A DNA stretch of 64,000 nucleotides from a virus. The translations under genes were made by a program, and so were the position numbers. Location: positions 32,001-96,000 of IMG/VR virus record IMGVR_UViG_3300031841_005609, one strand, 5' to 3'. This document shows positions 24,756 to 41,900 of this stretch, piece after piece (the stretch's first letter is position 1; every line of letters begins with the position of its first letter). Under the pieces are notes generated by a model. That model worked only from the letters and a program-made list of their open reading frames with translations, had not been told where the DNA came from and searched no databases.

Positions 24756-25563
24756 CAAGAAGCGCAACGTCGGTCTACTACATGAACAGCTTATTAGGCA
24801 TGCTAGTAGAATGACAGTCGAGGGCAGTGTCGAAAAAGCTCAAGATGCAGTCGACATTGTGACTAGGCATTTTAAAAGAGGATCTGAGACCCTGAGAGAA
24901 TTCAGGCTTTTTAGCTCTCTTATCCACACTAAGGTTGATTCCAAAGACCTTGCTCAAAGAATCGTTGCTGAAAGCAGAAGAGCATGCATGGATCATGACT
25001 CCGAAAAGCTCCGAAGAGAAAAATCTTTGCTCATAAAAGATATCAATCATCTTTTGAACGAGGAGAGCTTTTACGATCAAAGGATTCCGACCTATAGAAT
25101 ATTCGCAACAGTTCAGGCTCTACTCAATGAGTGGCGAGGAGCATCAAGACTCACACCTGCCGAAATTGTAAAGTATGAATCACGGTTGGTTGATCACTTG
25201 ACTCGGCAGGAAGCTGAGAATGAACTCCAGAGATCAGAAAACGCCGATCCTTTAGTACTAAACATAATGATCGAGAAGTTCAACAAGAAGTATGGAAAGA
25301 CACTCTCAGAAGATCAAAGAAAGATTCTTGAGCTCAGGCTTATGAACAAAAACGAAGAAGCTGTTGTTTTGATGGAGTCTGTCAAGAAAAAGACGCTAGC
25401 ATCAATCGATCGATTCTATGAATCTCTTGAAAACGAATATCTTGGAAAGAAAAGAGATGTTCTCGTTGAGAGAGTTACAAATTTTCAGCCAGACGAAACA
25501 GATGAATCAGTGGCAAAAGCTCTTTCTCTGGCAAATCTTTTATCAGAACTGGAGGCGGAATAA
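24742..25563 (+). CDS. conserved head-morphogenesis region protein
   Basis: KHNKKRNVGLL N-terminus, FNKKY..LSEDQ motif; start reassigned to ATG 24742 after SD AAGGAG. Confidence 0.65.
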   Translation: MAKHNKKRNVGLLHEQLIRHASRMTVEGSVEKAQDAVDIVTRHFKRGSETLREFRLFSSLIHTKVDSKDLAQRIVAESRRACMDHDSEKLRREKSLLIKDINHLLNEESFYDQRIPTYRIFATVQALLNEWRGASRLTPAEIVKYESRLVDHLTRQEAENELQRSENADPLVLNIMIEKFNKKYGKTLSEDQRKILELRLMNKNEEAVVLMESVKKKTLASIDRFYESLENEYLGKKRDVLVERVTNFQPDETDESVAKALSLANLLSELEAE

Positions 25564-26174
25564 TGGGCGACAGAAAACTACTGACAGAATGGTTGGCATT
25601 TGATTACTCTCCTGAGATGATCAAAGAGTCAAGAGAGGCCAATGGCGGGAAACTAATGATGAAAGGTATTTTGCAAAAAGCAGATACTCTTAATCAGAAC
25701 GGAAGAATCTATCCCATTGAAATACTTGACAGAGAAGTGAGAAACTACCAGAAGTTTATTAAGGAAAATCGCGCTCTTGGAGAATGTGATCATCCCGACA
25801 GCTCTGTGGTCGAACTTAAGAACGCATCACACATCGTTCGAGAAGCTTACATGAATGATGGTGTATGTTACGGAGTTGTGGAACTGCTGGATACACCAAG
25901 CGGAAAGATATTACAAAGTCTGGTAGAATCAGGCGTAACTTTGGGAATCTCATCAAGAGGCGTTGGATCAACTCGCCGTGAAGGTGATTACGATGTGGTT
26001 CAAGACGATTTTCAATTGATTTGCTGGGATTTCGTTTCAGAACCTTCTACACCAGGCGCCTTCATGATGAAAGAAGGAAAAGATTTTACGCGCGAAGATC
26101 TGAACAGACACTTTACTAAAACCGATAGAGTTGATAGGTTGGTCAACGATATCATTTCTTGGGAGAATGACTAA
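25563..26174 (+). CDS. prohead core protease (T4 gp21-like)
   Basis: NQNGRIYP, ALGECDHP, GISSRGVGS and DFVSEPS motifs. Confidence 0.92.
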   Translation: MGDRKLLTEWLAFDYSPEMIKESREANGGKLMMKGILQKADTLNQNGRIYPIEILDREVRNYQKFIKENRALGECDHPDSSVVELKNASHIVREAYMNDGVCYGVVELLDTPSGKILQSLVESGVTLGISSRGVGSTRREGDYDVVQDDFQLICWDFVSEPSTPGAFMMKEGKDFTREDLNRHFTKTDRVDRLVNDIISWEND

Positions 26175-26530
26175 TGGGACATTGGGTAGGACCAGGTATC
26201 GGAGATGTGGGATCTTATCAGGTCTCAGGAACTCCTTTTGTTTTTAATGCAACACAGAATCAGACCAAAACAGCAACTTTAGACTATGTGACGTCAGAGA
26301 TACAAGTCAATGTAGTTGGCACTGGTAACACAATATCTTTTGGAGATGCCGATACAACTACGTACACTTTACCTGCAGGTCTTTCTACCTTTCGTGTTAG
26401 GTGTAAGTCAATTCAAGTTATAGTTGCTAACACTTTGAACAACACAGTTTCTGTTTGTGCTTCTCTAACAGGCATCGAAGCAAAACACCTTGACCAGCAT
26501 GATCAGGACGATTACGGAACAGTCGCGTAA
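26174..26530 (+). CDS. small beta-rich head-region protein
   Basis: 118-aa coupled ORF, G..GSYQVSGTPF N-terminus. Confidence 0.6.
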   Translation: MGHWVGPGIGDVGSYQVSGTPFVFNATQNQTKTATLDYVTSEIQVNVVGTGNTISFGDADTTTYTLPAGLSTFRVRCKSIQVIVANTLNNTVSVCASLTGIEAKHLDQHDQDDYGTVA

Positions 26531-26539
26531 GGATAGAAA

Positions 26540-26968
26540 ATGGCTAAGTTAACCAAAACTGCACTTAAGTCTCTTGTGAAGGAATGTTTGGTCGAGATTC
26601 TCGCTGAAGGAATCGGGTCAACAGCAACTTTGCAAGAAGGTGTGAAAAAATCATCTGTAAGCGTTGAAGCAAGAAGACGAGCAGAAGAGAAAAGATTGGA
26701 ACAACATCGGAAAAAATTTGAAGTAAAAGTTGACAACACTGTCTCCGACCTAACAGATGATCCGATCATGCAGTCTATTTTTGCTGAGACAGCTAAAACC
26801 ACACTCCAAGAGCAGATGCAGCACGATTCAAGACCGGGAGCCACCACAGCTCAGCCAACCCCGGAAATGATGTCTGGCAAAGCATCAGGGATAGATCTTG
26901 GTAATATATTTGACGGAGCTTCTTCAAATTGGTCTGAGCTTGCTTTCGCAGAAAAGAAAGCTCGATAA
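26540..26968 (+). CDS. putative internal head protein
   Basis: N-terminal LKSLVKECLVEILAEG propeptide-like motif. Confidence 0.6.
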   Translation: MAKLTKTALKSLVKECLVEILAEGIGSTATLQEGVKKSSVSVEARRRAEEKRLEQHRKKFEVKVDNTVSDLTDDPIMQSIFAETAKTTLQEQMQHDSRPGATTAQPTPEMMSGKASGIDLGNIFDGASSNWSELAFAEKKAR

Positions 26969-27030
26969 CTGAGTTAACGAATACCTATAGAATAGAGAGG
27001 CATCTCTCTAAAAGTCTAGGAGAAAACAAG

Positions 27031-27318
27031 ATGGCAAAAAGAGTAAGAAAGCTCACAGCGGAATCCCTCAGAAGAATGATTCAGCAAGAAGCTCGTAAGC
27101 TTCAAAAAGAATCATCAGATCCTTTCGCTGCCGGAGTTGAGAAAATAGAAAAGGTTTCAGCAGAAGAAGTTGATGCTGATGAGATCGCTGGATCTCTTGA
27201 AAAAGATATCGATTATGTCAAGGCTCTTAAGATTCATGAGAAAAGATTGACCGATAAGCTTAAGAAGATTCAAGAAGCTAAAAACCTTCTTTCAAAAAGA
27301 ATTTCTAAAAACATATAA
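27031..27318 (+). CDS. putative internal head/prohead core protein
   Basis: LRRMIQQEARKLQKES N-terminus; SD AGGAG; preceded by ATACCTA (26981) and hairpin TAGAGAG/CTCTCTA. Confidence 0.6.
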   Translation: MAKRVRKLTAESLRRMIQQEARKLQKESSDPFAAGVEKIEKVSAEEVDADEIAGSLEKDIDYVKALKIHEKRLTDKLKKIQEAKNLLSKRISKNI

Positions 27319-27334
27319 GTTCGAGGAGTAGAAA

Positions 27335-27808
27335 ATGCCAACACACAAGCAAGGAACAGTAAGCCCACCGATAACTGAAAGAGGTTTGGGAAAAGCCGGC
27401 TCAAACGATCACTCTGCGATGTTCGGCACTAGTCCAATTCACTCCGGTGAAATGACTCCTGAATCAATAGCTCAGCAATACCAGCAAGAGATTCTGGACG
27501 GCACAATTAATGACGGCGGTCACACTTTCGGAACCTATGATCCAAATTATCCAGATGCTCCTAACATGGATGATGTTGAGACAGGCGGAGGAGGTCTTCC
27601 GGCCAGCCCATACGTTCCAAACCCTGTGTCCCCCGGGGAGGGATCTGTCGATCCTTCTGATCAAGCTGAGGCTCCTGACGGTTTCGGTGAAACTCCAAGC
27701 GCCACACCCTTCGTAGGTGTAGGATCTCAGCTCTCACCAAAAGCATCTTCAGAGGCTATTGCAAGACAGACTCTTGGAGACTACGGCTTAGGCAAGAGCT
27801 CCAACTAA
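27335..27808 (+). CDS. Pro/Gly/Ser-rich head-region protein, paralog A
   Basis: SD GAGGAG; aligns by eye with the 27820 product (MPT start, SPxH, APxx, PFxGxGS, GKSS end). Confidence 0.65.
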   Translation: MPTHKQGTVSPPITERGLGKAGSNDHSAMFGTSPIHSGEMTPESIAQQYQQEILDGTINDGGHTFGTYDPNYPDAPNMDDVETGGGGLPASPYVPNPVSPGEGSVDPSDQAEAPDGFGETPSATPFVGVGSQLSPKASSEAIARQTLGDYGLGKSSN

Positions 27809-27819
27809 AAGAGAGATAA

Positions 27820-28323
27820 ATGCCCACAGGAAACCAAAACGTTCTTGAGAATGAATTTCCAAACTACGGAAAGACTGGCATTCATTCGAGATCAAATCAA
27901 GAACGTTTGGCTTCTGCTTTCCCCGACAGCCCTGTACACGACCCGTCTGTTACTTCTTCAACCATAAGAGAATACTACTTTTATGAAGTTCTCTCCGGAG
28001 AATACGATCCTGACTCTGGTTTTACTCAAAGCAATTACGACTACTCAGAGGCTCCCGAAATTCCTAATACAACGGCTCCTGATGGCGAATCATCTCCCGG
28101 AAATCCAGGGTCTACAATAGTCTCCTCCGGAAAAGGTCCGAATGTAGCTACTCTCAATAGAAACAATTTACAAACCAATACCTCTCCGATGGTTGAGATA
28201 GAAAACGCTTCTGAGCCTCCCTTTTCAGGTCTTGGTTCTGGAGAAGATCCGAGCGAAACATCTTCTAGAATATCTTCACAAAATTTTGTCACGGGCTTAC
28301 CGATGGGCAAATCATCTGAGTAG
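27820..28323 (+). CDS. Pro/Gly/Ser-rich head-region protein, paralog B
   Basis: Shares motifs with the 27335 product. Confidence 0.65.
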   Translation: MPTGNQNVLENEFPNYGKTGIHSRSNQERLASAFPDSPVHDPSVTSSTIREYYFYEVLSGEYDPDSGFTQSNYDYSEAPEIPNTTAPDGESSPGNPGSTIVSSGKGPNVATLNRNNLQTNTSPMVEIENASEPPFSGLGSGEDPSETSSRISSQNFVTGLPMGKSSE

Positions 28324-28326
28324 CCC

Positions 28327-28914
28327 ATGCCTTCTACGAAAATACCAAAGTCAGTAGGTGAACCTTCTATATCACGGCATGATTCAAGATCAGATCTAGG
28401 GTATGGTAGAATATCAAATAAATTTCACAAGCCCAGAAAAGAGTCTGGAACATTTCCTTACCTAGTAGACCAATACTCAGAAATAGACTGGGAAGACGAA
28501 GAAACTCACGCCGCTATTGAAAAAAAGATTCAGAAGCATCAAAGGTCAGATCCTTTCATGAAGAAGTCAACAAGTCCTTTTTACTTTGCTGCTGGAAATA
28601 CTAAACTTTCTGATTGTTTCCAAAGAACAGAAGAAGTCTTGGAAGAAATTCACTCTCTTGGAGATTCAATGTCCCCGATTCCTCATTTGACAAAAAAGAG
28701 AAGAGAGATGTCAGGTGGCTCCAGTGTCCATTCAGGCGGAATTAGCAGCTCAAGCGCCAAAAGAACCGGTTCTGAAAAGGGATATGCGTCAGCTCCTCCT
28801 GATATAAAATATGACAAAAATGACAACGATCATAACGAAGTAATATTTAATCTAGAAGACCTCGTCAAAAAATTGCAATTAAAGACTGGGAATTTTAGGT
28901 ACCGAAAAACATAG
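28327..28914 (+). CDS. hypothetical head-region protein
   Basis: 195-aa ORF in the head operon. Confidence 0.6.
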   Translation: MPSTKIPKSVGEPSISRHDSRSDLGYGRISNKFHKPRKESGTFPYLVDQYSEIDWEDEETHAAIEKKIQKHQRSDPFMKKSTSPFYFAAGNTKLSDCFQRTEEVLEEIHSLGDSMSPIPHLTKKRREMSGGSSVHSGGISSSSAKRTGSEKGYASAPPDIKYDKNDNDHNEVIFNLEDLVKKLQLKTGNFRYRKT

Positions 28915-28917
28915 TTA
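28911..28917 (+). promoter_or_regulatory. putative late promoter core (ATAGTTA)
   Basis: Recurrent motif upstream of the scaffold gene. Confidence 0.45.
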
Positions 28918-28939
28918 ACGACAGACAAGGTGATCATAG

Positions 28940-30544
28940 ATGAGCAAAACGTTGTTTGAAGAGGCGGTCGCAGACGCCAATAAACTTAGAGAGCTAGCTG
29001 AAGAAACCGCTAAAAATAAAGTGGTCGAAGCAGTCATGCCTCAAATTAGAGACATGATAAATAAAAAGATCTTAGGTGAAGACCTCGACGTTGAGCAAGA
29101 TATCGATGATCTAGATCTTTCTCTAGAGCCTGAGCCTGAAGCAGATGCTTCTGAGCCTGTAAAGGTAGGGTTAGACACTGGGGGCGAAGGATCTGCTGTT
29201 AGCATCAACGTAGATGGTGACGTTGAGATTGATCTCGAAGTAGATGCAGGTGAAAAAGAGGAAGAATTAGTTATGGATCAAGCCATGGCTGAAGCTTTGA
29301 CTCGTCTCATTAGAGGTGAGGCCTCTGAAAAGTCCGAACTGGAAGTTAAAATTGACAAACTTTCCGAAAACGTAAACAAACTTGCAAGCGTTTTAAAAAT
29401 AGTTAAAAGATCAGATTTAAATGAAAGTCAAGTTAGCAGACTTAAAATAAGCTATCTTTATTGTCTTAGAGAGGCGATAAAATTAAAATCAGGGATAATA
29501 CTTACAGAAGATACGACTCAAGAGAGGCTTGAGCGAAGACTGACAGAAACAATTAAGGAGATAAGGAACATGTCGAAGTCAAATCGTCGCAATATTTTCG
29601 ACTTCCTCTTCGAAGGTGAAGATGAGAAGAAGAAAATGGAGGAACTCGAAGAGGCCGAGCTTTCCCTTGAGCTTTCGGCCGATGAACAAGAAGAGCTCGC
29701 AGATGCAGAGGATGCAGATGCAGTTGGTGATGCCTTAGAAGATATCTTAGGGGATATTGAACTTTCTTTAGGTGGTGGCGAAGAAGAAGCTGCTGAAGAA
29801 GAAGAAGGCGAAGAAGAAGGTGAAGAAGAAGCTGAAGACGAGGAAGTCGAAGTAGCTGAAGACGAAGACCTTGAGGAAGCCGATCACATGGAAGGCGCTT
29901 ACATGGATGAGGGCGAAGACATGGATGAAGTTTACGAAATAGACGAGAACATGTTGAGAGCTGAGCTTTCTAAGATGCTCAACGAAGACGATGCAGTTGA
30001 TGCTGATCCTGCACTCGCTCACGGTGGCGAAGAAATAGGCGATGTTCTTCTTGATGTTTCCGAAGACGATTTGATTAACGCTCTTGCTGATGAGCTTGGG
30101 TCTGTTGCTGATAACGGAGCTGCAGCACCTGCAGTTGCAGAAGGTAGACAGATGAGAAAGCTTCGAAGAGCTCTTAAGGAATCTCAAAATCAGAACGCTC
30201 AGTACAAGAGAGCAGTAACAGAGCTTAAGGGGCAACTTGTTGAAATGAATCTTTTCAACGCAAAGCTTCTTTATGCCAACAAGCTGATGCAGAATAAGGA
30301 CCTTTCAATGAAGCAGCAAAAGGCTATCGTTGAGGCACTTGATAACGCACAGACACTTCGAGAGGCGAAGCTTCTTTTCAAGAGCTTGACTGAATCTCTC
30401 AACAGAAGATCTAAGAAGACTATGAACGAAGGTTCTTTGCGAACAAGCGGTTCATCTTCTAGAACTACTCGATCTTCTGCACCTAAGAACACTAACAATG
30501 CCGAAGCGGATCGATGGGCGATCCTCGCTGGCTTAGCTAAATAA
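28940..30544 (+). CDS. prohead scaffolding protein (gp22-like role)
   Basis: Immediately before the MCP; very acidic middle, coiled coil, EMNLFNAKLLYANKL motif, C-terminal DRWAILAGL. Confidence 0.8.
   Translation: MSKTLFEEAVADANKLRELAEETAKNKVVEAVMPQIRDMINKKILGEDLDVEQDIDDLDLSLEPEPEADASEPVKVGLDTGGEGSAVSINVDGDVEIDLEVDAGEKEEELVMDQAMAEALTRLIRGEASEKSELEVKIDKLSENVNKLASVLKIVKRSDLNESQVSRLKISYLYCLREAIKLKSGIILTEDTTQERLERRLTETIKEIRNMSKSNRRNIFDFLFEGEDEKKKMEELEEAELSLELSADEQEELADAEDADAVGDALEDILGDIELSLGGGEEEAAEEEEGEEEGEEEAEDEEVEVAEDEDLEEADHMEGAYMDEGEDMDEVYEIDENMLRAELSKMLNEDDAVDADPALAHGGEEIGDVLLDVSEDDLINALADELGSVADNGAAAPAVAEGRQMRKLRRALKESQNQNAQYKRAVTELKGQLVEMNLFNAKLLYANKLMQNKDLSMKQQKAIVEALDNAQTLREAKLLFKSLTESLNRRSKKTMNEGSLRTSGSSSRTTRSSAPKNTNNAEADRWAILAGLAK
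29498..29572 (+). promoter_or_regulatory. internal late-promoter motif, SD and in-frame ATG inside the scaffold gene
   Basis: ATACTTA 29498; AAGGAG 29555; ATG 29570 in frame (codon 211). Confidence 0.55.
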
Positions 30545-30553
30545 GGAGAAAAA

Positions 30554-32422
30554 ATGTCTACATTTTCACTCGAACAGCTGACAGAGGGGATCCGTCAGAG
30601 GCATCTAGGATCTCAGAACCGTGAGCTGACAGAAAAATGGGCGAGAACTGGTCTTCTCAAGGGTCTTGACGGTGTCAAGCGTGAGAACATGGCTCGCCTC
30701 ATGGAGAACCAGGCCGCCCAGGTTCTTAAGGAGCAGTCATCCCTTTCAAACGGCGGTGGTGGTCTTGCCAACAGCGGCGACATGCGTGGTTTCACGAACA
30801 TCGCATTCCCAATTGTTCGTCGCGTATTCGGTGGTTTGATCGCAAATGACCTAGTTTCAATCCAGCCAATGAGCCTTCCGTCCGGACTCTTGTTCTACTT
30901 GGATTACACACGTCCAGGTTTGACAAGCATCCACGAAGACGGAGTGCATGTAATAAGCTCAGGTTCTTCTGCTTACGGAGATCCAGTTGGAAGCTCAGTC
31001 CAGACAGGTGCCGATGGAAAAGGAGGTCTCTACGACCTTGCTGGAAGCGCCTATTCTAGAGTTCACAGTGCCCAAGACGGGATAACCATATCAAACTCAG
31101 GTTCATTCTCAGGCGCCGACGGCGCATGGAGAGATCACCCAGGCGATGATGCAGCCACTCACCATGAAAGAGTAGTTGCGGCCACCGGTTCTGACGGAAA
31201 GGCGATCCAGTTTGATCCCCAGCTTACTAGCTTGATTGAAGCAAGAACGCACGCTTTTGACATTAAGTTTATCTCTCTTGCGACGGGTTACACAAATGCA
31301 GACACATCTCTTGTCAAGGAGTGGGGATTGGACGGCGGTACTTGTGGAGCTATCGATAGTGCAATTCAGACAGGGAACAGCAAGAACGTTCGTAGATTAA
31401 ATCAGCTGGTTACCTGGGATGGAACGAATTATGAGCCTGCCCCTCTAGGTGTACCTGGAGAAACAGCGAACCTTCACTTGTTGACAGTATGTTCTTCATC
31501 AATTCGTACTGCTCCAGGTCTTGGAAACGCTGCAAACGACACGCCTCCTACGAAACTTACTTTCCCGATCAAAGATTCTCTCACATCAGGAAACGGAAGC
31601 TCAGTTGTTGTTCCTTCTTTCGAGTCGGACTTCGGATCAACTCCATCGCCGGCGATTCCAGAGATCGACATCAAGGTTGAGGCTCTTCCTGTTGTAGCTC
31701 AGTCCAGAAAGCTTCGAGCTCGATGGTCACCAGAGCTCGCTCAGGATCTCAATGCATACCACAGTCTTGATGCAGAAGTAGAGCTCACTCAAATTCTCTC
31801 AGAGCAGATCGCTCTTGAGATCGACAGAGAGGTTCTTAACGATCTTCTCACACAAGCTGGTGCAGCTAACTACTACTGGTCAAGAGCTCCTGGTCGATTC
31901 CTCAACAAGGAGACAGGTGCTGTTCAAGACTCTGGTTTCGCTTCTTTCACAGGAACAGTTCGCGAATGGTATGAGACACTTGTTGAAACCATCATTGATG
32001 TCGCTAACCAGATCCACAGAAAGACGCTTAGAGGATCTGCTAACTTCATTGTTGTTGGTCCGGATGTTGCAACAATTCTCGAAGCCTCAGTTCTCTACAA
32101 GCCATCATACAGCTTGGACGGCGACGGCCAGGTGAGCGGAATGGTTATTGGTGCAGAAAAGGTTGGTACTTTGAGCAACCGATTCACAGTCTACAAGGAC
32201 CCATACTTCCCAAGAAATAAGGTTCTCGTAGGTTACAAGGGCGGAAGCTACTTGGAGACAGGCTATGTCTATGCTCCTTATGTACCTTTGATTGTTACAC
32301 CAACAATCTTCGCTCCTGAAGATTTCACTCCTCGTAAGGGCGTTATGACTCGTTACGGCAAGAAGATGGTTCGAGCCGACTTCTACGGAACAGTTACGTG
32401 CGCTGACATGAGCGTGATCTAA
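30554..32422 (+). CDS. major capsid protein copy 1 (T4 gp23-like)
   Basis: VSIQPMSLPSGLLFYLDY, RKLRARWSPELAQDLNAYH, YAPYVPL and FTPRKGVMTRYG; SD AAGGAG. Confidence 0.95.
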   Translation: MSTFSLEQLTEGIRQRHLGSQNRELTEKWARTGLLKGLDGVKRENMARLMENQAAQVLKEQSSLSNGGGGLANSGDMRGFTNIAFPIVRRVFGGLIANDLVSIQPMSLPSGLLFYLDYTRPGLTSIHEDGVHVISSGSSAYGDPVGSSVQTGADGKGGLYDLAGSAYSRVHSAQDGITISNSGSFSGADGAWRDHPGDDAATHHERVVAATGSDGKAIQFDPQLTSLIEARTHAFDIKFISLATGYTNADTSLVKEWGLDGGTCGAIDSAIQTGNSKNVRRLNQLVTWDGTNYEPAPLGVPGETANLHLLTVCSSSIRTAPGLGNAANDTPPTKLTFPIKDSLTSGNGSSVVVPSFESDFGSTPSPAIPEIDIKVEALPVVAQSRKLRARWSPELAQDLNAYHSLDAEVELTQILSEQIALEIDREVLNDLLTQAGAANYYWSRAPGRFLNKETGAVQDSGFASFTGTVREWYETLVETIIDVANQIHRKTLRGSANFIVVGPDVATILEASVLYKPSYSLDGDGQVSGMVIGAEKVGTLSNRFTVYKDPYFPRNKVLVGYKGGSYLETGYVYAPYVPLIVTPTIFAPEDFTPRKGVMTRYGKKMVRADFYGTVTCADMSVI

Positions 32423-32442
32423 AAGAAGTACGACTTCTAACT

Positions 32443-32471
32443 AAAGGGAGGCTTTTTGCCTCCCTTTTTTT
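32443..32471 (+). terminator. intrinsic terminator after MCP1
   Basis: AAAGGGAGGC-TTTTT-GCCTCCCTTT followed by a T run. Confidence 0.85.
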
Positions 32472-32489
32472 ATTTTTGAAATCGAGTTC

Positions 32490-32496
32490 ATATTTA
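32490..32496 (+). promoter_or_regulatory. putative late promoter for MCP2 (ATATTTA)
   Basis: Motif directly after the terminator; same ATATTTATTAAC context as 35707. Confidence 0.6.
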
Positions 32497-32501
32497 TTAA
32501 C

Positions 32502-32705
32502 ATGCTAGTGAAAAGTTTCACTAGAAAGTGCTTTGCGAAATGGCTGATGAGAATCTGATGCCGCGAGCTTTTGGTGGTTTGAGCATGGTGCAAAAGCCAC
32601 AAAACAGAGGATGGATAACCCTGGAATGTCGCCCCGGCAAAAAGCCTAGTGGGGTCGGTCGATGAGTTTTGAACATCCGCTGAAACGATGATAAAGACAT
32701 TACTT
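32502..32705 (+). ncRNA. structured 5' leader / candidate cis-regulatory RNA of MCP2 (family not recognised)
   Basis: Consecutive helices at 32505-24, 32542-62, 32569-604 and 32605-13/32674-82 (enclosing 32632-54); GC-richer than other spacers. Confidence 0.5.
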
Positions 32706-32720
32706 ATTAAGGAGAAAAAA

Positions 32721-34637
32721 ATGTCAACATTTTCATTGGAGCAGCTGACGGAAGGAATCCGAAGCCGACACCTCGGGTCACAAAACCGACAGCTTGTTGA
32801 AAAGTGGGCGAGAACTGGTCTTCTCAAGGGTCTTGACGGTGTCAAGCGTGAGAACATGGCTCGTCTTATGGAGAATCAGGCGTCACAGGTTCTTAAGGAA
32901 CAATCAAGCCTTTCAAACGGCGGTGGTGGTCTTGCCAACAGCGGCGACATGCGTGGTTTCACAAACATCGCATTCCCGATCGTAAGAAGAGTTTTCGGCG
33001 GCCTTATTGCTAACGATCTCGTAAGCATTCAGCCCATGAGCCTTCCTTCAGGTCTCTTGTTCTACTTGGATTACACAAGAGGAACCGAAGTTGGATCTTC
33101 TGACAACCCAGTATATAGCAGTGGCGACTCAGTATACAACAGCCCAGTTGGCAAAGGCGTTCAGAGTGGATCTCTCGCAGTTGGTGGACAGTATGACTTG
33201 GCTGGAAGTGGTTACACCAGAGTTCATGAAACAAACGAAGACGTCGACTTAGGCACCGATGGTCTTGCTGCTCTTTCAAGAATTTTTACCATGGACGCAA
33301 ACGGTGATGCTACAGTAGCAACTGCTGCTCAGCTGGATCCAGTCGCGACCACAGGTCGTGCGGGTAAGCTTCTTCAGTTTGATCCACAGATCATAAAGCA
33401 GCTTGACGAAGGAACTGCTGAATATCACTTCATGCTTATTCCTCTGACCACTGACTGCTTCGGCTCAAACTTTGACACGACTCTTGTGAAGGAAGTTGGA
33501 CTAGTTGTTCACACCGCCCTGCCGTCAGATGTTCTTCTCAACGTAGACAGCTCTGTACAAAGCGGTTCAACTAGAAACGTTAGACGTTTGAATCAGCTTG
33601 TTACAGTTACTGGTGGAACTGACGCCGCCGCACTTACTACTGATAACATCGAGGCTCTGACTTCTACCCCGCTTGCTCAAGTTGGCGACACCGGTGCATG
33701 TTTGCTCATGGTTGTTCGACACAAGCCAGGTTCAACGTTCGCTGCTAGCGATCTTAACGATGGCGATCACATCGGAATCACCTATCCTGTTGCAGACAAG
33801 TTAGAGTCAGGAAGCGGCAGCTCAGTTGTTGTTCCTTCTTTCGAGTCTAACTTCGGAGCAACTCCATCACCTGAGATCCCAGAGATCGACATTAAGGTTG
33901 AGGCTTTGCCAGTTGTAGCTCAGTCACGTAAGTTGCGAGCACGTTGGTCACCAGAGCTTGCTCAGGATCTTAATGCATACCACAGCCTTGACGCTGAGGT
34001 TGAGTTGACACAGATCCTTTCAGAGCAGATCGCTCTTGAGATCGATAGAGAAGTTCTTAACGACCTTCTTACCCAGGCGGGAGCTGCTAACTACTACTGG
34101 TCACGTGCACCAGGTCGTTTCTTGAACAAGGAGACAGGTTCAGTTTCAAGCATCGGTACTTTCACCGGTACGGTTCGTGAGTGGTATGAGACTCTCGTAG
34201 AGACGATTATCGACGTTGCAAACCAGATCCACAGAAAGACACTGCGTGGTTCCGCAAACTTCATCGTTGTTGGACCAGACGTTGCTACTATCCTTGAAGC
34301 AAGCGTTCTCTACAAGCCATCATACAGCCTCGACGGTGACGGACAGGTTAGTGGTATGGTGATCGGAGCTGAGAAGGTTGGTACCCTTTCAAATCGTTTC
34401 ACGGTTTACAAGGATCCTTACTTCCCACGCAACAAGGTTCTTGTTGGATACAAGGGCGGAAGCTACCTTGAGACTGGTTACGTATACGCTCCATACGTAC
34501 CTCTCATCGTTACTCCAACGATCTTCGCACCTGAGGACTTCACCCCACGTAAGGGTGTCATGACTCGCTACGGTAAGAAGATGGTTCGAAGTGACTTCTA
34601 CGGTACCGTTACATGCGCCGACATGAGCGTGATCTAA
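32721..34637 (+). CDS. major capsid protein copy 2 (T4 gp23-like)
   Basis: Same motifs as copy 1 with a different central domain; start 32721 after SD AAGGAG matches the copy 1 N-terminus (in-frame ATG also at 32688). Confidence 0.95.
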   Translation: MSTFSLEQLTEGIRSRHLGSQNRQLVEKWARTGLLKGLDGVKRENMARLMENQASQVLKEQSSLSNGGGGLANSGDMRGFTNIAFPIVRRVFGGLIANDLVSIQPMSLPSGLLFYLDYTRGTEVGSSDNPVYSSGDSVYNSPVGKGVQSGSLAVGGQYDLAGSGYTRVHETNEDVDLGTDGLAALSRIFTMDANGDATVATAAQLDPVATTGRAGKLLQFDPQIIKQLDEGTAEYHFMLIPLTTDCFGSNFDTTLVKEVGLVVHTALPSDVLLNVDSSVQSGSTRNVRRLNQLVTVTGGTDAAALTTDNIEALTSTPLAQVGDTGACLLMVVRHKPGSTFAASDLNDGDHIGITYPVADKLESGSGSSVVVPSFESNFGATPSPEIPEIDIKVEALPVVAQSRKLRARWSPELAQDLNAYHSLDAEVELTQILSEQIALEIDREVLNDLLTQAGAANYYWSRAPGRFLNKETGSVSSIGTFTGTVREWYETLVETIIDVANQIHRKTLRGSANFIVVGPDVATILEASVLYKPSYSLDGDGQVSGMVIGAEKVGTLSNRFTVYKDPYFPRNKVLVGYKGGSYLETGYVYAPYVPLIVTPTIFAPEDFTPRKGVMTRYGKKMVRSDFYGTVTCADMSVI

Positions 34638-34662
34638 TAAAAATTTAGATCAAAATGTATCT

Positions 34663-34696
34663 GGGGCGTCCTGAAAAGGACGCCCCTTTTTTTTTT
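34663..34696 (+). terminator. intrinsic terminator after MCP2
   Basis: GGGGCGTCCT-GAAA-AGGACGCCCC plus T10. Confidence 0.9.
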
Positions 34697-34719
34697 GAAG
34701 CGACCTTGAAATTCTTTAG

Positions 34720-34726
34720 ATACTTA
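34720..34726 (+). promoter_or_regulatory. putative late promoter core (ATACTTA)
   Basis: 8 nt before ATG 34735, no SD. Confidence 0.5.
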
Positions 34727-34734
34727 AAAGAGTT

Positions 34735-35283
34735 ATGTCTAAAAAGTCAAAAAAATCAAGCAGTCTAGAAAGTCTTCGAAAACTTGTTGATAATCTAACT
34801 GATAGAGACGTTCAGATCAAAAGAGACTTTCGACTTTTCGAGTCGTTTCTTGAGAACTTCCCCATCCCAGTCACCATGTGGTCTGCAAACTTAGACGGAC
34901 TAGTCTTGAACAAAAAAGACAGAGGTTTCTTTTGCAAGACGGGAGACAAGATTGAAGATCTGTTTTCTTGTGAGTCTCTTGCAGACACTGTTTTCAAAAA
35001 ACACAAGGAAGCTCTTTCCGGAGAGCCTAACAGCACTTTGATTCAAAAGATGGAAAAAACTTTCTATGTAACAGTTGCTCCTCGACATGATAACGATAAC
35101 ATTGTCATAGGAGTTTCTGGAATTGCGTGGGATGTATCTTCTAACAGTTTCATATTAGATACATTGATCGACATTAAAAATGTCACAGAGACGAAATCTG
35201 GGACTTTTGAAGAGATTAATGAAAAAGCTTCTAAAGCTATTGAAAAGAGTAGACTTTTTCTTCTAGCAAAGGAGGGCAAGTAA
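34735..35283 (+). CDS. stand-alone PAS-domain protein
   Basis: FESFLENFPIPV..W..NLDG..; ALSGE..; FYVTVAPRHDNDNIVIGVSGIAWDVS fits a PAS/PAC pattern. Confidence 0.75.
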   Translation: MSKKSKKSSSLESLRKLVDNLTDRDVQIKRDFRLFESFLENFPIPVTMWSANLDGLVLNKKDRGFFCKTGDKIEDLFSCESLADTVFKKHKEALSGEPNSTLIQKMEKTFYVTVAPRHDNDNIVIGVSGIAWDVSSNSFILDTLIDIKNVTETKSGTFEEINEKASKAIEKSRLFLLAKEGK

Positions 35284-35284
35284 G

Positions 35285-35617
35285 ATGTCATCTGATTCAA
35301 ACCAAAATGGATGGAATGAATATTCTAGACTGGTTTTAAAAGAACTTGAAAATCTTGCAGACAACATTGACGGTCTCAAGGAAGAGCTTCAAGAAGTCAA
35401 GCAAGAAATTGCCAAGATGCAAGTTCGAGAAGACAAGGTAGATGAGCTTAAGACCTGGAAAGAGAAAGTAGACGAAGTAGTTTCTCCAACCCAGCTGTCC
35501 AATCTTGTCAAAGAAGTCGAAGAGCTTAAGATGTTCAAGACCAAGGCAATCACCACATTTGCAGTCGTTCAGTTCTTGATGGCTCTTTGGGCTTGGTCTC
35601 AAAAATTTATGCAATAA
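35285..35617 (+). CDS. coiled-coil protein with a C-terminal TM helix (holin-like architecture)
   Basis: Heptad region followed by AITTFAVVQFLMALWAW; SD AAGGAGG. Confidence 0.55.
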   Translation: MSSDSNQNGWNEYSRLVLKELENLADNIDGLKEELQEVKQEIAKMQVREDKVDELKTWKEKVDEVVSPTQLSNLVKEVEELKMFKTKAITTFAVVQFLMALWAWSQKFMQ

Positions 35618-35706
35618 ATTTCTTAAGCATAGGTTGAACTAATCAGCCCAGCGATCATGCGAAATCTTTCAACAATTAAAGACCCAGATAATTGCAAGTC
35701 GACTCG

Positions 35707-35713
35707 ATATTTA
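35707..35713 (+). promoter_or_regulatory. putative late promoter core (ATATTTA)
   Basis: Upstream of the neck gene; GAGGTG SD follows. Confidence 0.55.
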
Positions 35714-35732
35714 TTAACAGTGAGGTGTGTAA

Positions 35733-36902
35733 ATGTCTAGATTTGTCGACATATTGAATCCAACTCCTTTTGGATTTTTTGACTCTGAGATTGCTTTTCA
35801 AAACGAAGCCGATTCTGTCGTCACTTTCATAAAGAGAAAGCTTGGTGATGATATCCTTAGTGTTGAACTAACCAAGCGACAGATCTGGGCCTGCCTTGAA
35901 GAATCCGCTTTGGAATACAGCTCGATCATAAATCAGTATCAGGCAAAGTCTCAGCTTGCGAATCTTCTAGGGGGACCAACAGGTTCACTGGATGGTGTAG
36001 AGCAAAAGTTTCCAAGAGAAAATCTAGAGTTTATGCTTCGAAGAGCTGAACCCTATTCTATGGAAGCGGGTCTCGGCGGTGTTTATAACATGCTTTCCGG
36101 ATCTATTGCTCTCGAAAAAGGAAAGCAGGACTACGATCTGTATTCAGATCTCAAAGGAGCCGATGGCAACGCTCTATTCGATAATGCTGCTAACAATCCG
36201 AAAACTAAGATGAAAGTGATGGAAGTTTTTCACTTCAGCCCACAGGCTGCATATCGATTTTTCGATACAACTTCTGCTATCAACTATCTTAACAACGAAT
36301 TTAGCTTTGAGTCATTTACACCAGAGACAGTCTTTTATGTGCTACCAGTTTTTGAGGATGTTCTCCGAGGCGGAATGCTTGATATGTCCTCGAGAGTTAG
36401 AAGAAGTAACTTTTCATATAAAATAACTGGAACAAAGATAAGAATCTTTCCGATTCCCACGAGTACAAACCCACAGAATCTTTTTATAAGAGTTCACTTT
36501 TCGCCTGATCCACTTAAGCCGGCTTTTAAAGATGCCTCTATTGAGGGCATTAGCAATCTTTCCAACATTCCGTATGGAAGACTTGAATATTCTAGAATTA
36601 ATTCTATTGGAAGGCAATGGATCAGACAGTATGCCCTTGCTCTTTCTCGAGAGTTACTAGGGTTGGTTAGATCTAAATTTTCAACAGTACCTATTCCTGG
36701 TTCTGATCTTCAGTTGAACGGAACAGAGTTAATATCCCAGGGAAGAGAGGACAAAGAAAACTTAAAGACAAAACTAGGAGAAATGCTAGACGAGCTAACA
36801 TATGACAAGATGCTTGAGTCAGAAGCGGCAGCTAGCGAAAATCTTACCAGAATTCTTAAAGCTATTCCGATGCCAAACGGAAAAGCAATTTCAATGGGTT
36901 AA
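35733..36902 (+). CDS. neck/head-tail adaptor protein (gp13-like)
   Basis: RKLG..LSVELT..QI..CLEE N-terminus; WIRQYALALSRELLGLVRSKF..PG..LNG. Confidence 0.8.
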   Translation: MSRFVDILNPTPFGFFDSEIAFQNEADSVVTFIKRKLGDDILSVELTKRQIWACLEESALEYSSIINQYQAKSQLANLLGGPTGSLDGVEQKFPRENLEFMLRRAEPYSMEAGLGGVYNMLSGSIALEKGKQDYDLYSDLKGADGNALFDNAANNPKTKMKVMEVFHFSPQAAYRFFDTTSAINYLNNEFSFESFTPETVFYVLPVFEDVLRGGMLDMSSRVRRSNFSYKITGTKIRIFPIPTSTNPQNLFIRVHFSPDPLKPAFKDASIEGISNLSNIPYGRLEYSRINSIGRQWIRQYALALSRELLGLVRSKFSTVPIPGSDLQLNGTELISQGREDKENLKTKLGEMLDELTYDKMLESEAAASENLTRILKAIPMPNGKAISMG

Positions 36903-36908
36903 CAATAG

Positions 36909-37577
36909 ATGGCTAGACTTTTTATAACCCCACGAGAAATAGATCTGATATCAGACTTGACCAAAGAGGTCATCAAAGATGTCGCTGGTCAAAAAGTCTA
37001 TTACTACAGGGTTAGAGAAGACTTAAGCAACGTTCATGACGTGTACGAAGAGTCACCTGACAAAGTTTTTGACCCTCCTATCGAAGTTGAAGCAAGAGTT
37101 GAATATCTACCAGAAGAAATAAGAACGAATCGTTTTGGCGGAGAAGAGTTTTACTCTATTAACGTTTTCTTTCATGAACGAGATCTCCTAGACAGAGATA
37201 TTGATGTTCGAACCGGTGATTACTTTAGCTACGGAGACACTTTTTTCGAAATAACCAGTGCTATCGTTGAGTCAAACGTTTACGGACAGATTGAGCATGC
37301 TATTGGAGTTAAAGTAACCGGAAAGCAGGCGAGAATCGGACAAATAGATAAGACTCCTAACGGACCTACTAGCGAGCAATACACCGATGAGGATGCTGTT
37401 CAAGAGACTTTCGTTCAACAGAGAGGCTTCGAGGAGAACAGGCTTGGGCCCACCGAAGACAAGAGACAACTTCAGGAAGACGGAAAGCTTGACAAGCCTT
37501 TGACGGGACCTCAAGAAGTTTCACCTCGAGCAGACAAAGAAGATGAAGTGAAGTCTTCTTTTTATGATGAGATTTAA
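36909..37577 (+). CDS. neck/head-closure protein (gp14-like)
   Basis: Position; GQKVYYY..DVYEES..FDPP; GDYFSYGDTFFEI. Confidence 0.65.
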   Translation: MARLFITPREIDLISDLTKEVIKDVAGQKVYYYRVREDLSNVHDVYEESPDKVFDPPIEVEARVEYLPEEIRTNRFGGEEFYSINVFFHERDLLDRDIDVRTGDYFSYGDTFFEITSAIVESNVYGQIEHAIGVKVTGKQARIGQIDKTPNGPTSEQYTDEDAVQETFVQQRGFEENRLGPTEDKRQLQEDGKLDKPLTGPQEVSPRADKEDEVKSSFYDEI

Positions 37578-37579
37578 AA

Positions 37580-38866
37580 ATGTCGACTCGATACTATAAA
37601 AACAAAAACGATGGGACTTCAAGATCTGCTGGATACGAAGGTTCGAACATACCTGACGACTTTAATGTTCCTTCGTGTACTATAGAGGATGTTGACAGAG
37701 CTCTTTTCGATCTCTTTGACAAGCAGCTTCCGTTTACATACAAGCATAAAGAAGGTACTAAAAGAGCTCCGGTTATATTCGCATCAGGCGAAAGATTTGC
37801 CGTCCTTAGGAGAAAAGAACCCTTAAGGGACAAGTCAGGGGCTCTTGTTCTTCCGCTTGTCTCTATAATGAGAACAGGAATATCTCAGGTTCCTACGATG
37901 GGAGCTGGAACATCTCAGAATACTCCTCACGTCGTGAAGAGAAAGCTTTCAAAAGATGACCCTGAGTATCAAAGGCTTCTAAACAAAAGGGGACTAAGAA
38001 ACTCCGACGACCTTCCGTCTAAGAATTCTCTTGCTGATCCTGAGAATCCCGTAAAAGAAAAGGCTGCTCCTGGAAAGAACGCTTCCAGAAGAGACATACC
38101 TTCTAGGAGAGACACGAACGATATCGGAAATCCTCTAGGTCAGAACATCTATGAGATCATTGAGATACCGCCGCCGAAATATTTTACTGCATCTTACGAG
38201 ATAACACTCTGGTCACAGTACACTCTTCAGATGAACGATATGATAACGGCTCTCATGTCCCTATATCAGTCGTATTCTCAGAGAACCTTTCAGCTTGAGA
38301 CAGACAAGGGATACTGGTTTGTAGGCTACGCCGGAGAGGACCTCAATCCTGGTAACAACTTTGATGATTTCACAGATAGTGAAAGAATAGTCAGGTACAC
38401 ATTTACTATGACAGTCCCGGGCTATCTTGTCAATCCCCAGTTCCCCGGAAGTCAAAACGGAGTGAGAAGATATGTTTCTGCTCCTGAGATATCTTTTGAT
38501 GCAATCCTCTCTGCTGGAGAGTTTGAACCTTTCACCCAGGAAGGACCAATTTCCGGAAATCCTTCTGATCATGTCCTTGAGGACTTGAGAACTGTTGATG
38601 AACCGCTCCCTGGCCAGCAAATAGGGTCGACAAATTTTGCAGCTTCAGATTCTCGTGGCATATTTAGAAAAAGACAAGGTTCTCAATCGGTCGATTCAGC
38701 TCTAAAGCAAACGTCGATTGGGGGCACTTTCACTGACGATAATAGGACAAAAATTATTCAATATGATAGAGATCCTTTCACCGGAAAGAAGATTAGAAAA
38801 TCTCTCCATGTCAAAAACAGAACGAATAGAATGGGAGAGACGGTTTTGAGAGAGACTCTTGATTAG
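37580..38866 (+). CDS. tail terminator/sheath stabiliser (gp15-like)
   Basis: PVIFASGERF, LPLVSIMRT, YEITLWS, RYTFTMTVPGYL; position before the sheaths. Confidence 0.65.
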   Translation: MSTRYYKNKNDGTSRSAGYEGSNIPDDFNVPSCTIEDVDRALFDLFDKQLPFTYKHKEGTKRAPVIFASGERFAVLRRKEPLRDKSGALVLPLVSIMRTGISQVPTMGAGTSQNTPHVVKRKLSKDDPEYQRLLNKRGLRNSDDLPSKNSLADPENPVKEKAAPGKNASRRDIPSRRDTNDIGNPLGQNIYEIIEIPPPKYFTASYEITLWSQYTLQMNDMITALMSLYQSYSQRTFQLETDKGYWFVGYAGEDLNPGNNFDDFTDSERIVRYTFTMTVPGYLVNPQFPGSQNGVRRYVSAPEISFDAILSAGEFEPFTQEGPISGNPSDHVLEDLRTVDEPLPGQQIGSTNFAASDSRGIFRKRQGSQSVDSALKQTSIGGTFTDDNRTKIIQYDRDPFTGKKIRKSLHVKNRTNRMGETVLRETLD

Positions 38867-38884
38867 AATTTTGAAACGAACATG

Positions 38885-38891
38885 ATAATTA
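38885..38891 (+). promoter_or_regulatory. putative late promoter core (ATAATTA)
   Basis: Upstream of sheath 1; SD AGGAG follows. Confidence 0.5.
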
Positions 38892-38921
38892 AAAGATGCA
38901 TAGAACGTTCTAGGAGATACA

Positions 38922-41900
38922 ATGGCTGAGCAAACATTTAGATCACCCGGGTTTTTTGAACAGGAAATTGACCTTTCTGCTAGGCAAATAGCTCCTGTCG
39001 GAACACCCGCTGGAGTCATAGGTACATCAGAATTTGGACCCGCATTTGTTCCAGTAACGGTAGGATCTTTCGCCGATTTTGAATCACGTTTTGGTACGCT
39101 ACACCCAGACAGATTCGGACCTTATGCCGTAAGAGAATTTTTAAAGCACAGATCAGCTTTAACCTATCTTAGAGTTTTGGGAGCTGGAGCCAATGAGACC
39201 TCCACAGACATCCAGAACACTGAGCAGTACGGTTACGTTAAAAACGCCGGCTTCCGACTTACCGGTTCTTTGATGACTGACACTGATGGCGAAGGCGCTG
39301 ATGATCTTGCATTTCAGGGCGGTGTTGCTATTATATCTGCTAAACACACGCCCGTTGCTCACGAAGCGGCCAGCTATAGCTTATATACAGATAATGCTAG
39401 TATTAGTAACAACACTGACGCTCATCTGGTCAGAGGCGTTGTCTTCTTAACAACTGGTTCTAAGCTCCAGATTCTTGATCACGATCAAAACTGGTCAATC
39501 GTAAATTCAAGAGCCGCCGGCGCTGAGGTCGGTGCCATTGGTGGTCTTTCAGATCAGAAATATTTTAAGCTTGCGATCAGCTCTTCTGCTGGAGCTTCTT
39601 TTTCAAATGATGAAGGAGTCCCGGGAATTAGAATTCTTACCGCATCCCTTGATCCGAACGACGGACAGTACATCGGCAAAGTTCTAAACACAAATCCACA
39701 GAATTTTCAGAAGGAGCAACACCTTCTCTACTTAGACTATGCAGTTGAGCACGAACTCGCTCCTGTTACTGTAACCCCAGGAACAGACACAGTTGCAGTT
39801 CTTTCTGGTACGATAAATACTTCTACTAGAAACTCACTAAGATATGACAACATTGTAGGTCGTTACGACACGAGATACACAACTCCTCGAACTACAAGCT
39901 TTATATCACAACCTTTCGGAAAGAAGGAGTTTGATCTCTTTCACTTTGAGACAATTTCTGATGGTGCTTATGCAAACGATAAATTTAAGGTCTCTATAGC
40001 TAATCTTCGGGCTTCGACGGATCCGAACGATGCTTACGGAACTTTTGAAGTCCAGGTAAGACTCTTCGATGACAAAGATACATCTACTGAGATCATCGAG
40101 AGATATCCTGAATGTAGTCTCAACCCAAGAAGCGATAGATACGTTGCTAGAGTTATTGGTGACAAAAAGGTTAGATACGATTTCGATCAGGAAGATCCTT
40201 CGGAAAGACGTCTTGTAATAACAGGAAAATATCCAAACCTTTCTTCTAGAATTAGAATCCAAATGAACGCTGGGATAGAAGCCGGCGAAGTTCCTGCAAC
40301 TGCGCTTCCTTTTGGTTTTAGAGGAATACCGGTTCTAAAGACCAACAATTCTTTGACTGATGGTCTTACTGGACTCACCGACTCTGAGTCAAGAGCTTTG
40401 GGGGAAACAGTCCCAGACAATAGAAAGACACACAGGCTTAATTCTAACACTGATGCTGTTGCGCTAACAAGAGCAATAGTTCCTCCGATGCCGTATAGAT
40501 TTAAGGTAACTAGAGGGGAAGCATCTTCTGATTCTACACCTGGTTTCGTTGGAACTCCTGGAACAAACGAAAGAGTTGACGGAAGATATTATTGGGGTGT
40601 TAATTCATTAAGAATTCCAACTGCAGGATCTACTACAAATCCTGTCCTCAATTCAAACGCAGGAAACACGGTTAATCCTCTCGTTAGGGCTTATACCAAG
40701 TTCCAAGGAATTGAGAAGCTGGATGCACTTGTTTCTGGTTCTGCTGCTGATGAATTTAACTCAAACAAGTTCACGCTTGCAAGAGTTGCCTTCTCAAACA
40801 AAACGGCAAACAACTCTCTATATGATGTTTTCTCAGCCTTTACTGGATCAGCTCCGGAGCACATGCTTGAAGCTGCTTACATCAGAGACGGACAGCCGGA
40901 TAGAAACACGTATGTTGTGGATGATAGAGTCGCCGCAGGAAATAGATTTACTCTCGCTTCTTTGATTCACACTAGCTCGGTTCTCTTTAACAGATTCACC
41001 TCTTACGCTAAGTTTACCAACGTGTTCCACGGCGGATTCGACGGGCTTAATATCCTAGACAGAGATCTCTCGCTATTCAGGGATAAGGCGTTCTCAGTAG
41101 ACGCCGGAGGTAAATCAGTTGAAACAGGAATGAATATCGGTCTCGCTGATGTTGATTCAAAGAACCAGGGTGGTTCCGGAAGAAGAAGCAACAGTAACGC
41201 ATCTATGAGAAGAGCTGTTGATATCATGACTGATCCGATGTCTTCGAACATCAACATCCTTGCAATACCGGGCGTAAGAGAAACATTCGTATCGGATCAC
41301 GCCCTTGAGAAGACCAGAGATTATTCGAAGGCTATGTACTTGCTAGATACTCTAAAGTACGATGAAAACGGAAATAGACTTTACGACGACAGCAAGGCTC
41401 GAGTGGATGTGAGAGAAACATCAGAGCAGTTCGAGAGCAGAGCTATCGACAACAACTACGCAGCTACATACTTCCCAGATGTTTTTATACAGGATCCTAT
41501 TAACAACAGAAATGTTAAGGTTCCTGCTTCGGTAGCGGCTTTGGGAACGTTGGCTTTCAACGACAGAGTTTCTTTCCCTTGGTTCGCACCTGCTGGTTTT
41601 AATCGAGGTGGAATGGACTTCGTTGTAAATGTCGAAAACAGACTCACTTCTGGAGACAGAGACACACTGTATGATGCAAGAATGAATCCTATAGCTGTTT
41701 TCCCGAACACTGGTTTCGTTATCTTCGGGCAGAAAACTCTGCAGTTTACAAAGTCTGCTCTCGACAGAGTCAACGTTAGACGCCTGATGCTAGAGATTAA
41801 ACGACAGGTTACTGGAGTGGCTGAAAGATTCTTGTTCGAGCCGAACAACGCTACGACTCGATCTAGGTTCGTAAGCCAGATAACTCCACTTCTTGGACTC

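Follow-up and report, generated by a model that had tools for sequence, protein, structure and literature searches.

We have analysed a 64,000-nucleotide stretch of DNA (the window) that is part of the 106-kb IMG/VR record IMGVR_UViG_3300031841_005609 and comes from an uncultured marine T4-like giant phage. The window carries two tandem genes for gp23-family major capsid proteins (MCPs), MCP1 and MCP2. These are two full shell proteins that match where they build the lattice and differ where they face outward, and the outward-facing module is passed between phages as a cassette. The data suggest, with a probability that we put at about 0.5, that MCP1 and MCP2 are co-adapted isoforms with exchangeable surface cassettes, which enter the same heads or replace each other. 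To judge from the sequence, the head surface of this phage may be built from, or switched between, two coats. Tailed-phage shells are usually described with one MCP, sometimes plus a strongly diverged vertex paralogue, and we found no description of tandem MCPs with matched cores in the literature, where several matches to 'two major capsid proteins' were false positives.

MCP1 (30554-32422, 622 aa) and MCP2 (32721-34637, 638 aa) are both intact and lie on the + strand, as do the rest of the head module and the hairpins, motif and leader described below. Both score 256-258 bits against the Pfam Gp23 profile (PF07068), for which the cut-off is 24.4 (E 6.8e-76 for MCP1 and 1.9e-76 for MCP2). The MCP2 open reading frame (ORF) as called spans 32688-34637; the true start is almost certainly the ATG at 32721, because the MSTFSLEQ N-terminus and the AAGGAG-A-rich ribosome site both match those of MCP1. 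When the family profile was compared with the PDB it matched the T4 gp23 structures 5vf3, 6uzc and 8t9r at ~1e-35 and gp24 (1yue) at 3e-4, and by this measure MCP1 and MCP2 are equally gp23-like, with neither closer to gp24. No gp24-like third homologue was found in the contig or in near-complete relatives.

An initial annotation, made from the sequence alone, had described two tandem gp23-like genes that are near-identical at both ends and far more alike than T4 gp23 and gp24, and alignment bears this out. Overall identity is 73% (BLASTP). The two proteins differ at 4 positions within residues 1-120 and at 4 positions within residues 351-622, where they also differ in a short hypervariable loop that the annotation had picked out (AVQDSGFAS in MCP1, 31919-31945; SVSSIGT in MCP2, 34140-34160). 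This loop (residues 456-464) varies in length and sequence across the family, independently of the type of the large variable block described next. Residues 121-350 are only ~37-41% identical, with several indels, and the limits first given for this divergent block (30914-31597 in MCP1 and 33081-33818 in MCP2) are correct. On either side of the block the cores share ~98% of their amino acids but only ~80-85% of their nucleotides: about half of the core codons for identical residues bear a silent change, and synonymous divergence (dS, Nei-Gojobori) is 1.05 in the N-terminal core (N-core) and 1.36 in the C-terminal core (C-core). Both copies have the sequence VLKE/QSS at residues 57-60, in the cleavage region predicted by alignment to gp23, and this is a candidate (L/I)xE prohead-protease site that would end the propeptide. 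Both genes have a GC content of 0.495 and a third-position GC content (GC3) of ~0.45, like the MCP gene of L004, the closest relative with a single MCP, and above those of the neighbouring genes. A foreign origin of MCP1 by composition was rejected since GC, GC3 and codon choice are equal in the two copies.

In T4 the insertion (I) domain of gp23 protrudes from the surface and rests on the neighbouring subunit of the same capsomer. The family profile, aligned with T4 gp23, places the variable block from ~residue 131 to near residue 222 of gp23, with family position ~121-125 corresponding to gp23 ~131-135. Linker 1 of T4 gp23 comprises aa 132-160 (PMC9546572). The alignment therefore equates the variable block with the I-domain and its two linkers, in agreement with the proposal in the initial annotation that the divergence falls at the exposed insertion position. 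At 230-247 aa the block is more than twice the size of the T4 domain (~95 aa). AlphaFold2 (AF2) gives compact models of the MCP1 I-domain, with confidence values (pLDDT) of mostly ~65-96 over residues ~170-310, and of the MCP2 I-domain, with values of 84-97 over residues ~170-360. The only match of an AF2 model to T4 gp23 was a weak one (6uzc_a, Z 4.8, rmsd 4.7, 112 residues), and fold searches with the whole models (Foldseek, VIA) gave nothing useful, because the cores are poorly modelled. A look-up of the MCP2 I-domain in the ESM Atlas returned only unnamed clusters, with scores of 0.91 or below.

The same tandem arrangement is found in a second contig, G006 (L175-L177; IMGVR_UViG_3300012936_000333), which was found through a 25-nt word of the spacer between the two genes and comes from another metagenome. 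G006 (17.4 kb) matches window positions 31187-40351 (9.2 kb) collinearly with 88% identity; in it, part of MCP1 is followed by a 300-nt spacer, 96% identical to that of the window, and by MCP2. Its proteins are identical to P0004 and P0180, which are both on record from one 143-kb ENA contig. In the comparison of the window with G006, the MCP1 C-core and each of the three parts of MCP2 have a dS of 0.19-0.26. The corresponding dN/dS ratio (omega) is 0.05 in the MCP1 C-core, 0.04-0.075 in the MCP2 cores and 0.15 in the MCP2 I-domain. This shows that both copies are functional and maintained under purifying selection (omega 0.04-0.15). C-core dS between the paralogues themselves is 1.36 in the window and 1.53 in G006, far above the ~0.2 that separates the two phages, so the pair is older than the split between the window phage and G006.

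The MCP1 I-domain behaves differently. Against the background dS of 0.19-0.26, its dS between the window and G006 is 1.44 and its dN 0.32, and the identity profile drops to 63-76% within the domain from 89-100% in the surroundings. This indicates that the MCP1 I-domain has been replaced by recombination. Across the family the I-domain diverges ~10 times faster than the core, with a plateau near 62% divergence, and in many close family pairs its dS is several times that of the core, which points to a different history and not only to relaxed or positive selection. Two I-domain lineages are present in the tandem pair. Type 1 comprises MCP1, P0003, P0004, P0005 and P0007, with MCP1 50-74% identical to the other members; type 2 comprises MCP2, P0016 and P0069-P0072 (clade support 0.999), with MCP2 47-59% identical to the others. 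The MCP of L004 has a third I-domain type on a core that is 97% identical to that of MCP2. Differences between close variants are clustered in patches: P0179 has the MCP1 core bar one residue, and an I-domain with 27 substitutions and a 10-aa insertion in two patches. Taken together, the data show I-domains that act as old allele lineages, passed on between phages through homologous recombination in the conserved flanks. The surface difference that had first been noted is thus real, but it is not a divergence in place, since old allele lineages have moved by recombination. A diversity-generating retroelement was also considered as the origin of the variability and dropped: there are indels, whole-domain replacement and saturated silent sites, and no adenine-specific changes.

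The paralogue cores have stayed nearly the same as protein although their silent sites have drifted. We compared core protein divergence with divergence at 4-fold degenerate sites for all pairs among 143 distinct MCP genes of the family. For MCP1 and MCP2 the 4-fold divergence is 0.551 and the core protein divergence 1.6%, the lowest of the 2008 pairs in that bin (median 16.7%). A second tandem pair, in locus L025, has a 4-fold divergence of 0.353 and a core protein divergence of 0.8%, the lowest of 84 pairs (median 6.3%). Both tandem pairs are therefore at the minimum of core divergence, as paralogues with matched shell interfaces should be. Gene conversion cannot explain the cores because the proteins are identical yet the codons differ. 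The simplest reading is that both shell proteins, as products of one genome, have to be compatible with a common scaffold, protease and portal and probably with one another.

L025 was found in a survey of 147 distinct related loci from IMG/VR and JGI metagenomes, to which the G006 contig, found later, does not belong. At least 2 kb is available on both sides of the MCP gene in 57 of the 147 loci, and L025 is the sole one with a second copy. L025 belongs to a different lineage (~80% core identity), so that the tandem arrangement, for which related contigs had been proposed as a check, is found in G006 and, independently, in L025. The L025 pair (L025:5965-9870) has an 88-nt spacer, cores that are 99% identical, I-domains that are 70% identical and a 90-nt tract in the C-core that is identical as DNA. 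Additionally, P0003 (type 1) and P0016 (type 2) share an 8,633-nt ENA contig and have cores that are 98% identical, and from these two ENA proteins we infer a third tandem pair. Four relatives that are 75-93% complete (255-318 kb) have one Gp23-family gene each and no gp24. In the 318-kb relative, a stretch 4.5 kb 3' of the MCP gene (L009:12449-12691, the same record as L099) shares 32% identity with the first 80 residues of the MCP, and a separate 118-aa frame in this relative (G001:C1:103208-103336) matches the Gp23 N-terminus and contains a TGA. These N-terminal MCP-like stretches are possible propeptide-like mini-genes.

Comparison with L004 (IMGVR_UViG_3300023180_000497) shows that MCP2, and not MCP1, is the original copy. 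L004 and the window are collinear to the left and right of the locus, and the stretch that runs from MCP1 through the spacer is all that sets them apart in structure. Downstream of its MCP gene, L004 has a flank, terminator included, that is nearly identical to the flank of MCP2 and unlike that of MCP1, and the last 30 nt ahead of its MCP start correspond to the 3' end of the MCP2 leader. In the C-core, MCP2 and L004 are separated by a dS of 0.32, in comparison with 1.3-1.4 between MCP1 and either MCP2 or L004. The last ~88 nt of the leader (32633-32720) align with the 3' end of the L004 scaffold gene with a local score of 56 (maximum 50 in 500 shuffles) and are a decayed scaffold-gene 3' remnant with a ribosome site, marking the right junction of the rearrangement; the leader matches significantly only the L004 scaffold 3' end, the comparison with the window's own scaffold 3' end being not significant. 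Flank, 5' match, scaffold remnant and C-core dS all point to MCP2 as the ancestral resident gene, orthologous to the single MCP of the relatives. MCP1 was added downstream of the scaffold gene and ahead of MCP2, together with its terminator and ~210 nt of new spacer sequence, and one of the junctions lies within the 3' end of the scaffold gene.

Two tracts in the MCP1 N-core, 30638-30696 (59 nt) and 30742-30795 (54 nt), are identical as DNA to MCP2 (permutation p ~0.001) and are the only visible footprints of gene conversion. They are also the likely crossover site of P0181, a database protein that starts with the N-terminal signature of MCP1 (Q15, E24, T26) and continues with the I-domain and C-core of MCP2; the switch lies between codons 26 and 55, where the 59-nt tract sits. 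P0181 arose when the pair collapsed into one gene, either naturally or during assembly, and an exact-word search for its contig with the MCP1 N-terminal DNA gave no match.

The two genes appear to be arranged into separate transcription units. MCP1 starts 10 nt past the stop of a 534-aa ORF (28940-30544) that is scaffold-like by position and composition. MCP1 is presumably read together with this gene, as the single MCP of L004 is. MCP1 is followed by a strong terminator-like hairpin and T run (32443-32475), with a 10-bp stem (32443-32467) of which 6 pairs are GC, then TTTTATTTTT; the hairpin is identical in G006. A second strong terminator-like hairpin and T run follows MCP2 (34663-34696), with a 10-bp stem (34663-34686), 8 GC pairs and T10. 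The same sequence lies 3' of the single MCP of L004, and this is the ancestral MCP terminator.

Between the two genes is a promoter-like motif for MCP2, ATATTTATTA (32490-32499), which is conserved in G006. The 106-kb contig has four exact copies of the motif ATATTTATYA, all four intergenic and on the coding strand; since the non-coding fraction of the contig is 3.2%, the chance of this placement is ~1e-6. The copies precede genes starting at 11436, 32721, 35733 and 47617, and no copy is directly upstream of MCP1. The distance from motif to start is 221 nt for MCP2 in comparison with 16-46 nt for the other three, which are structural genes. The four sites (11380-11389, 32490-32499, 35707-35716 and 47577-47586) have the extended form CG-ATATTTATYA-(A)CAG. 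ATATTTATYA is a candidate phage promoter unlike the T4 late motif TATAAATA, of which the window has 0 copies; a scan for sigma-70 promoters was at chance level.

No other non-coding stretch of the window is as long as the spacer and leader of MCP2 (32471-32720, 250 nt). In the comparison with G006, substitutions amount to 3.2% in the leader and 16.8% at the 4-fold sites of the flanking MCP genes (Fisher p 9e-9). The leader is thus ~5 times better conserved than silent sites, which suggests that it is constrained, unless it lies inside a recently exchanged tract. Bar the last 29 nt, the spacer and leader have no homologue in other related loci except in the near relative G006. There was no match to Rfam above or near threshold, the folding energy is not significant (z-score -0.88), and the two sequences (window and G006) show no compensatory pairs and only three wobble-compatible changes. 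Right after the promoter-like motif is a hairpin (32505-32524) in which the window and G006 differ by three changes in the 4-nt loop and one stem change from U-A to U-G; with two sequences only, this is compatible with a conserved 5' stem-loop. The description of copy 2 as lying behind a terminator with its own promoter motif, long leader and terminator is therefore upheld by the hairpins, the placement of all four motif copies and the conserved leader, and these features support two transcription units.

MCP1 and MCP2 are complete gp23-type shell proteins with the same propeptide, N-arm and core of the P and A domains, so both should suit the same scaffold, protease, portal and lattice. What differs between them is the large, surface-exposed I-domain. 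Both proteins would be made from separate transcripts and would be incorporated into the same proheads, in mixed capsomers or in mixed lattices, or would substitute for each other according to expression. The resulting particles would differ in surface with the mechanics of the shell unchanged, and any benefit would lie at the surface, in adhesion, binding of decoration proteins or avoidance of surface recognition, and not in shell geometry. We consider this the most likely explanation because one MCP suffices for whole heads in relatives, because the domains that determine geometry are the same in both copies, because both genes look highly expressed from their ribosome sites and their GC and GC3, and because the variable parts behave as surface alleles. 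An MCP2-type gene may be sufficient alone, given the single-MCP relatives and the chimeric P0181. A more specific form of the idea, which we put forward tentatively and hold to be somewhat less probable, is that the pair is a 'two-serotype' locus: separately controlled isoforms that co-assemble or alternate to tune the surface, with cassettes that recombine. If true, surface diversification would take place in the main shell protein and not in decoration proteins or tail fibres.

Several points weigh against the isoform explanation. Co-assembly of the two proteins is a prediction from their genes, and two surface types would raise the exposure of the phage to a host sensor that recognises capsid protein. 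The outlier statistic for core divergence sets a paralogue pair against orthologue pairs that are near silent-site saturation. The L004 MCP and MCP1 likewise differ by only 2.7% in the core, so that a core that evolves slowly throughout this subclade accounts for part of the effect. The apparent constraint on the leader could be an effect of recent recombination, some coding windows being 99-100% identical between the two phages, and P0181 may have arisen when the assembler collapsed the pair across the 59-nt identical tract. The AF2 models of the monomers have poor cores (pLDDT 35-55).

The strongest alternative is a young and independently evolved hexamer/pentamer split of the gp23/gp24 kind, in which one copy forms the hexameric lattice and the other is specialised for the eleven pentameric vertices by its I-domain. 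A gp24-type vertex protein makes up the pentameric vertices, with ~55 copies per head. T4 gp24 is a gp23 paralogue encoded next to gene 23 with an I-domain that docks differently (PMC9546572), and the mycobacteriophage Jabs has adjacent hexon and penton MCP genes (10.64898/2026.07.24.740622). The present clade is without gp24, separate transcription units would permit unequal dosage, and co-adapted cores are equally expected of two proteins in one shell. On the other hand, the relatives, Sinorhizobium phage PhiM9 and cyanophages build whole heads with one MCP. In PhiM9, which has no gp24, the pentamer is thought to be gp23 (PMC4621102), and cyanomyoviruses have one gp23-type gene and no gp24 (PMC2984593). 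The P and A domains that set capsomer geometry are ~99% identical between MCP1 and MCP2, and the short loop is independent of paralogue type. Both genes have the same strong ribosome site and a high-expression composition. Additionally, the I-domain of MCP1 has been swapped between close phages in the manner of a surface allele, and P0181 suggests that an MCP2-type protein alone can suffice. We therefore regard a hexamer/vertex split as unlikely and as the weaker reading in comparison with co-adapted isoforms. The initial annotation had called such a split recent; the duplication itself is not, since silent sites in the cores are near saturation and the pair predates the split from G006.

It is less likely still that the pair is a redundant intermediate of allele replacement, that is, a second allele captured by recombination from a co-infecting relative, which awaits unequal crossing-over and gives no benefit. 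The family is highly mosaic (patches of 96-99% amid 60-75% identity in comparison with L004), I-domain cassettes move between phages, a scaffold 3' remnant lies at the junction, a collapsed form is known (P0181) and there is only one other tandem pair among the 147 distinct related loci. However, a transient redundant copy is expected to decay or be lost, whereas this pair has persisted through a phage dS of ~0.2 with omega at 0.04-0.15 in both copies and is present in at least three phages. The silent divergence between the paralogues is ~1.4, and the spacer has gained a promoter-like motif and is conserved. Finally, a misassembly that set two strain variants of one capsid gene in tandem can practically be dismissed: the contig is metagenome-assembled and identical tracts of 54-59 nt in both copies could confuse an assembler, but the copies are joined by a unique 298-nt spacer with a terminator, a promoter-like motif and a scaffold remnant, the same junction was assembled at 96% identity from another metagenome, the exact proteins are on record from 5 contigs, and with ~20% of core nucleotides different MCP1 and MCP2 are not collapsible repeats.

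The pair of putative isoforms resembles T4 gp23 and gp24 in that two HK97-fold, gp23-family genes lie in tandem after the scaffold gene in a T4-type head module, each with an I-domain at the E-loop position, and both proteins are expected in one shell. The pairs differ in several respects. T4 gp23 and gp24 have diverged along their whole length whereas MCP1 and MCP2 differ only in the I-domain and one loop; the newcomer here is the upstream copy, MCP1; the I-domain is much the larger here; and the division between hexamers and pentamers is known for gp23 and gp24, whereas here it is a possibility. The relatives of the window phage are like the single-MCP phages of the T4 superfamily in having one gp23-type gene and no gp24, and their single protein presumably forms both hexamers and pentamers. 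The window phage differs from these in its additional full-length copy, which at least two close relatives share. The Jabs proteins MCPh and MCPp are also encoded by adjacent HK97-fold capsid genes and build one shell, but they are 594 and 257 aa long and structurally distinct (10.64898/2026.07.24.740622), whereas MCP1 and MCP2 are of near-equal size with matched cores.

The hypervariable regions of the adenovirus hexon and the P domain of caliciviruses likewise pair a shell under constraint with an exposed module that changes fast, recombines and determines the surface type. These viruses have one allele per genome and other folds; here two alleles are present in one genome. The locus points to selection on the capsid surface of marine giant phages, which may act through adhesion, decoration or recognition by hosts or grazers. 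If both proteins are present in one head, this would be a natural mixed HK97 lattice and a possible starting point for the evolution of a vertex protein like gp24. The locus also offers a direct test system, with its two genes, its conserved leader and single-gene variants that occur naturally.

The MCP genes lie in the order expected for gp23, in a T4-type head module of terminase, portal, protease, several small ORFs, the acidic scaffold-like ORF and the two MCPs. The large terminase (Terminase_6N, 21206-22771), the gp20 portal (Portal_T4, 22827-24755) and the gp21-type prohead protease (Peptidase_S77, 25563-26174) were identified by family matches, as was the tail sheath (38922-42077), which is among the neck and tail genes 3' of the MCPs. 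The small ORFs separate the protease from the 534-aa ORF, which is directly upstream of MCP1 at the position of gp22. This ORF has 38% charged residues and 20 (L/I)xE sites and no Pfam or PHROG match, and is a putative scaffold by position and composition. The protein is about twice the size of T4 gp22 and has a long poly-acidic centre, and the 3' ends of this gene and of its L004 counterpart differ by a 12-nt deletion adjoining the MCP1 ribosome site. Window positions 25859-30553 align with L004:1-4668 in patches of 96-99% identity (25859-26158, 26458-26607 and 29529-29678) amid 56-78%, and this mosaic pattern points to frequent recombination in the head module. An antisense ORF at 32441-32857 had no family match and was treated as spurious.

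CheckV rates the source contig at ~38% of a genome; at 106 kb, the phage is therefore probably a jumbo phage. A search of GenBank phages for near-identical DNA found no match. The best protein matches are 30-43% identical and come from an uncultured 484-kb phage, Flavobacterium phage immuto and Rhodothermus RM378. Upstream of the terminase, a 1044-aa ORF (17474-20608) combines a calcineurin-like phosphoesterase (Mre11-type) N-terminus with parts of an SMC/Rad50-type ATPase, and looks like a fused gp47-gp46 equivalent.

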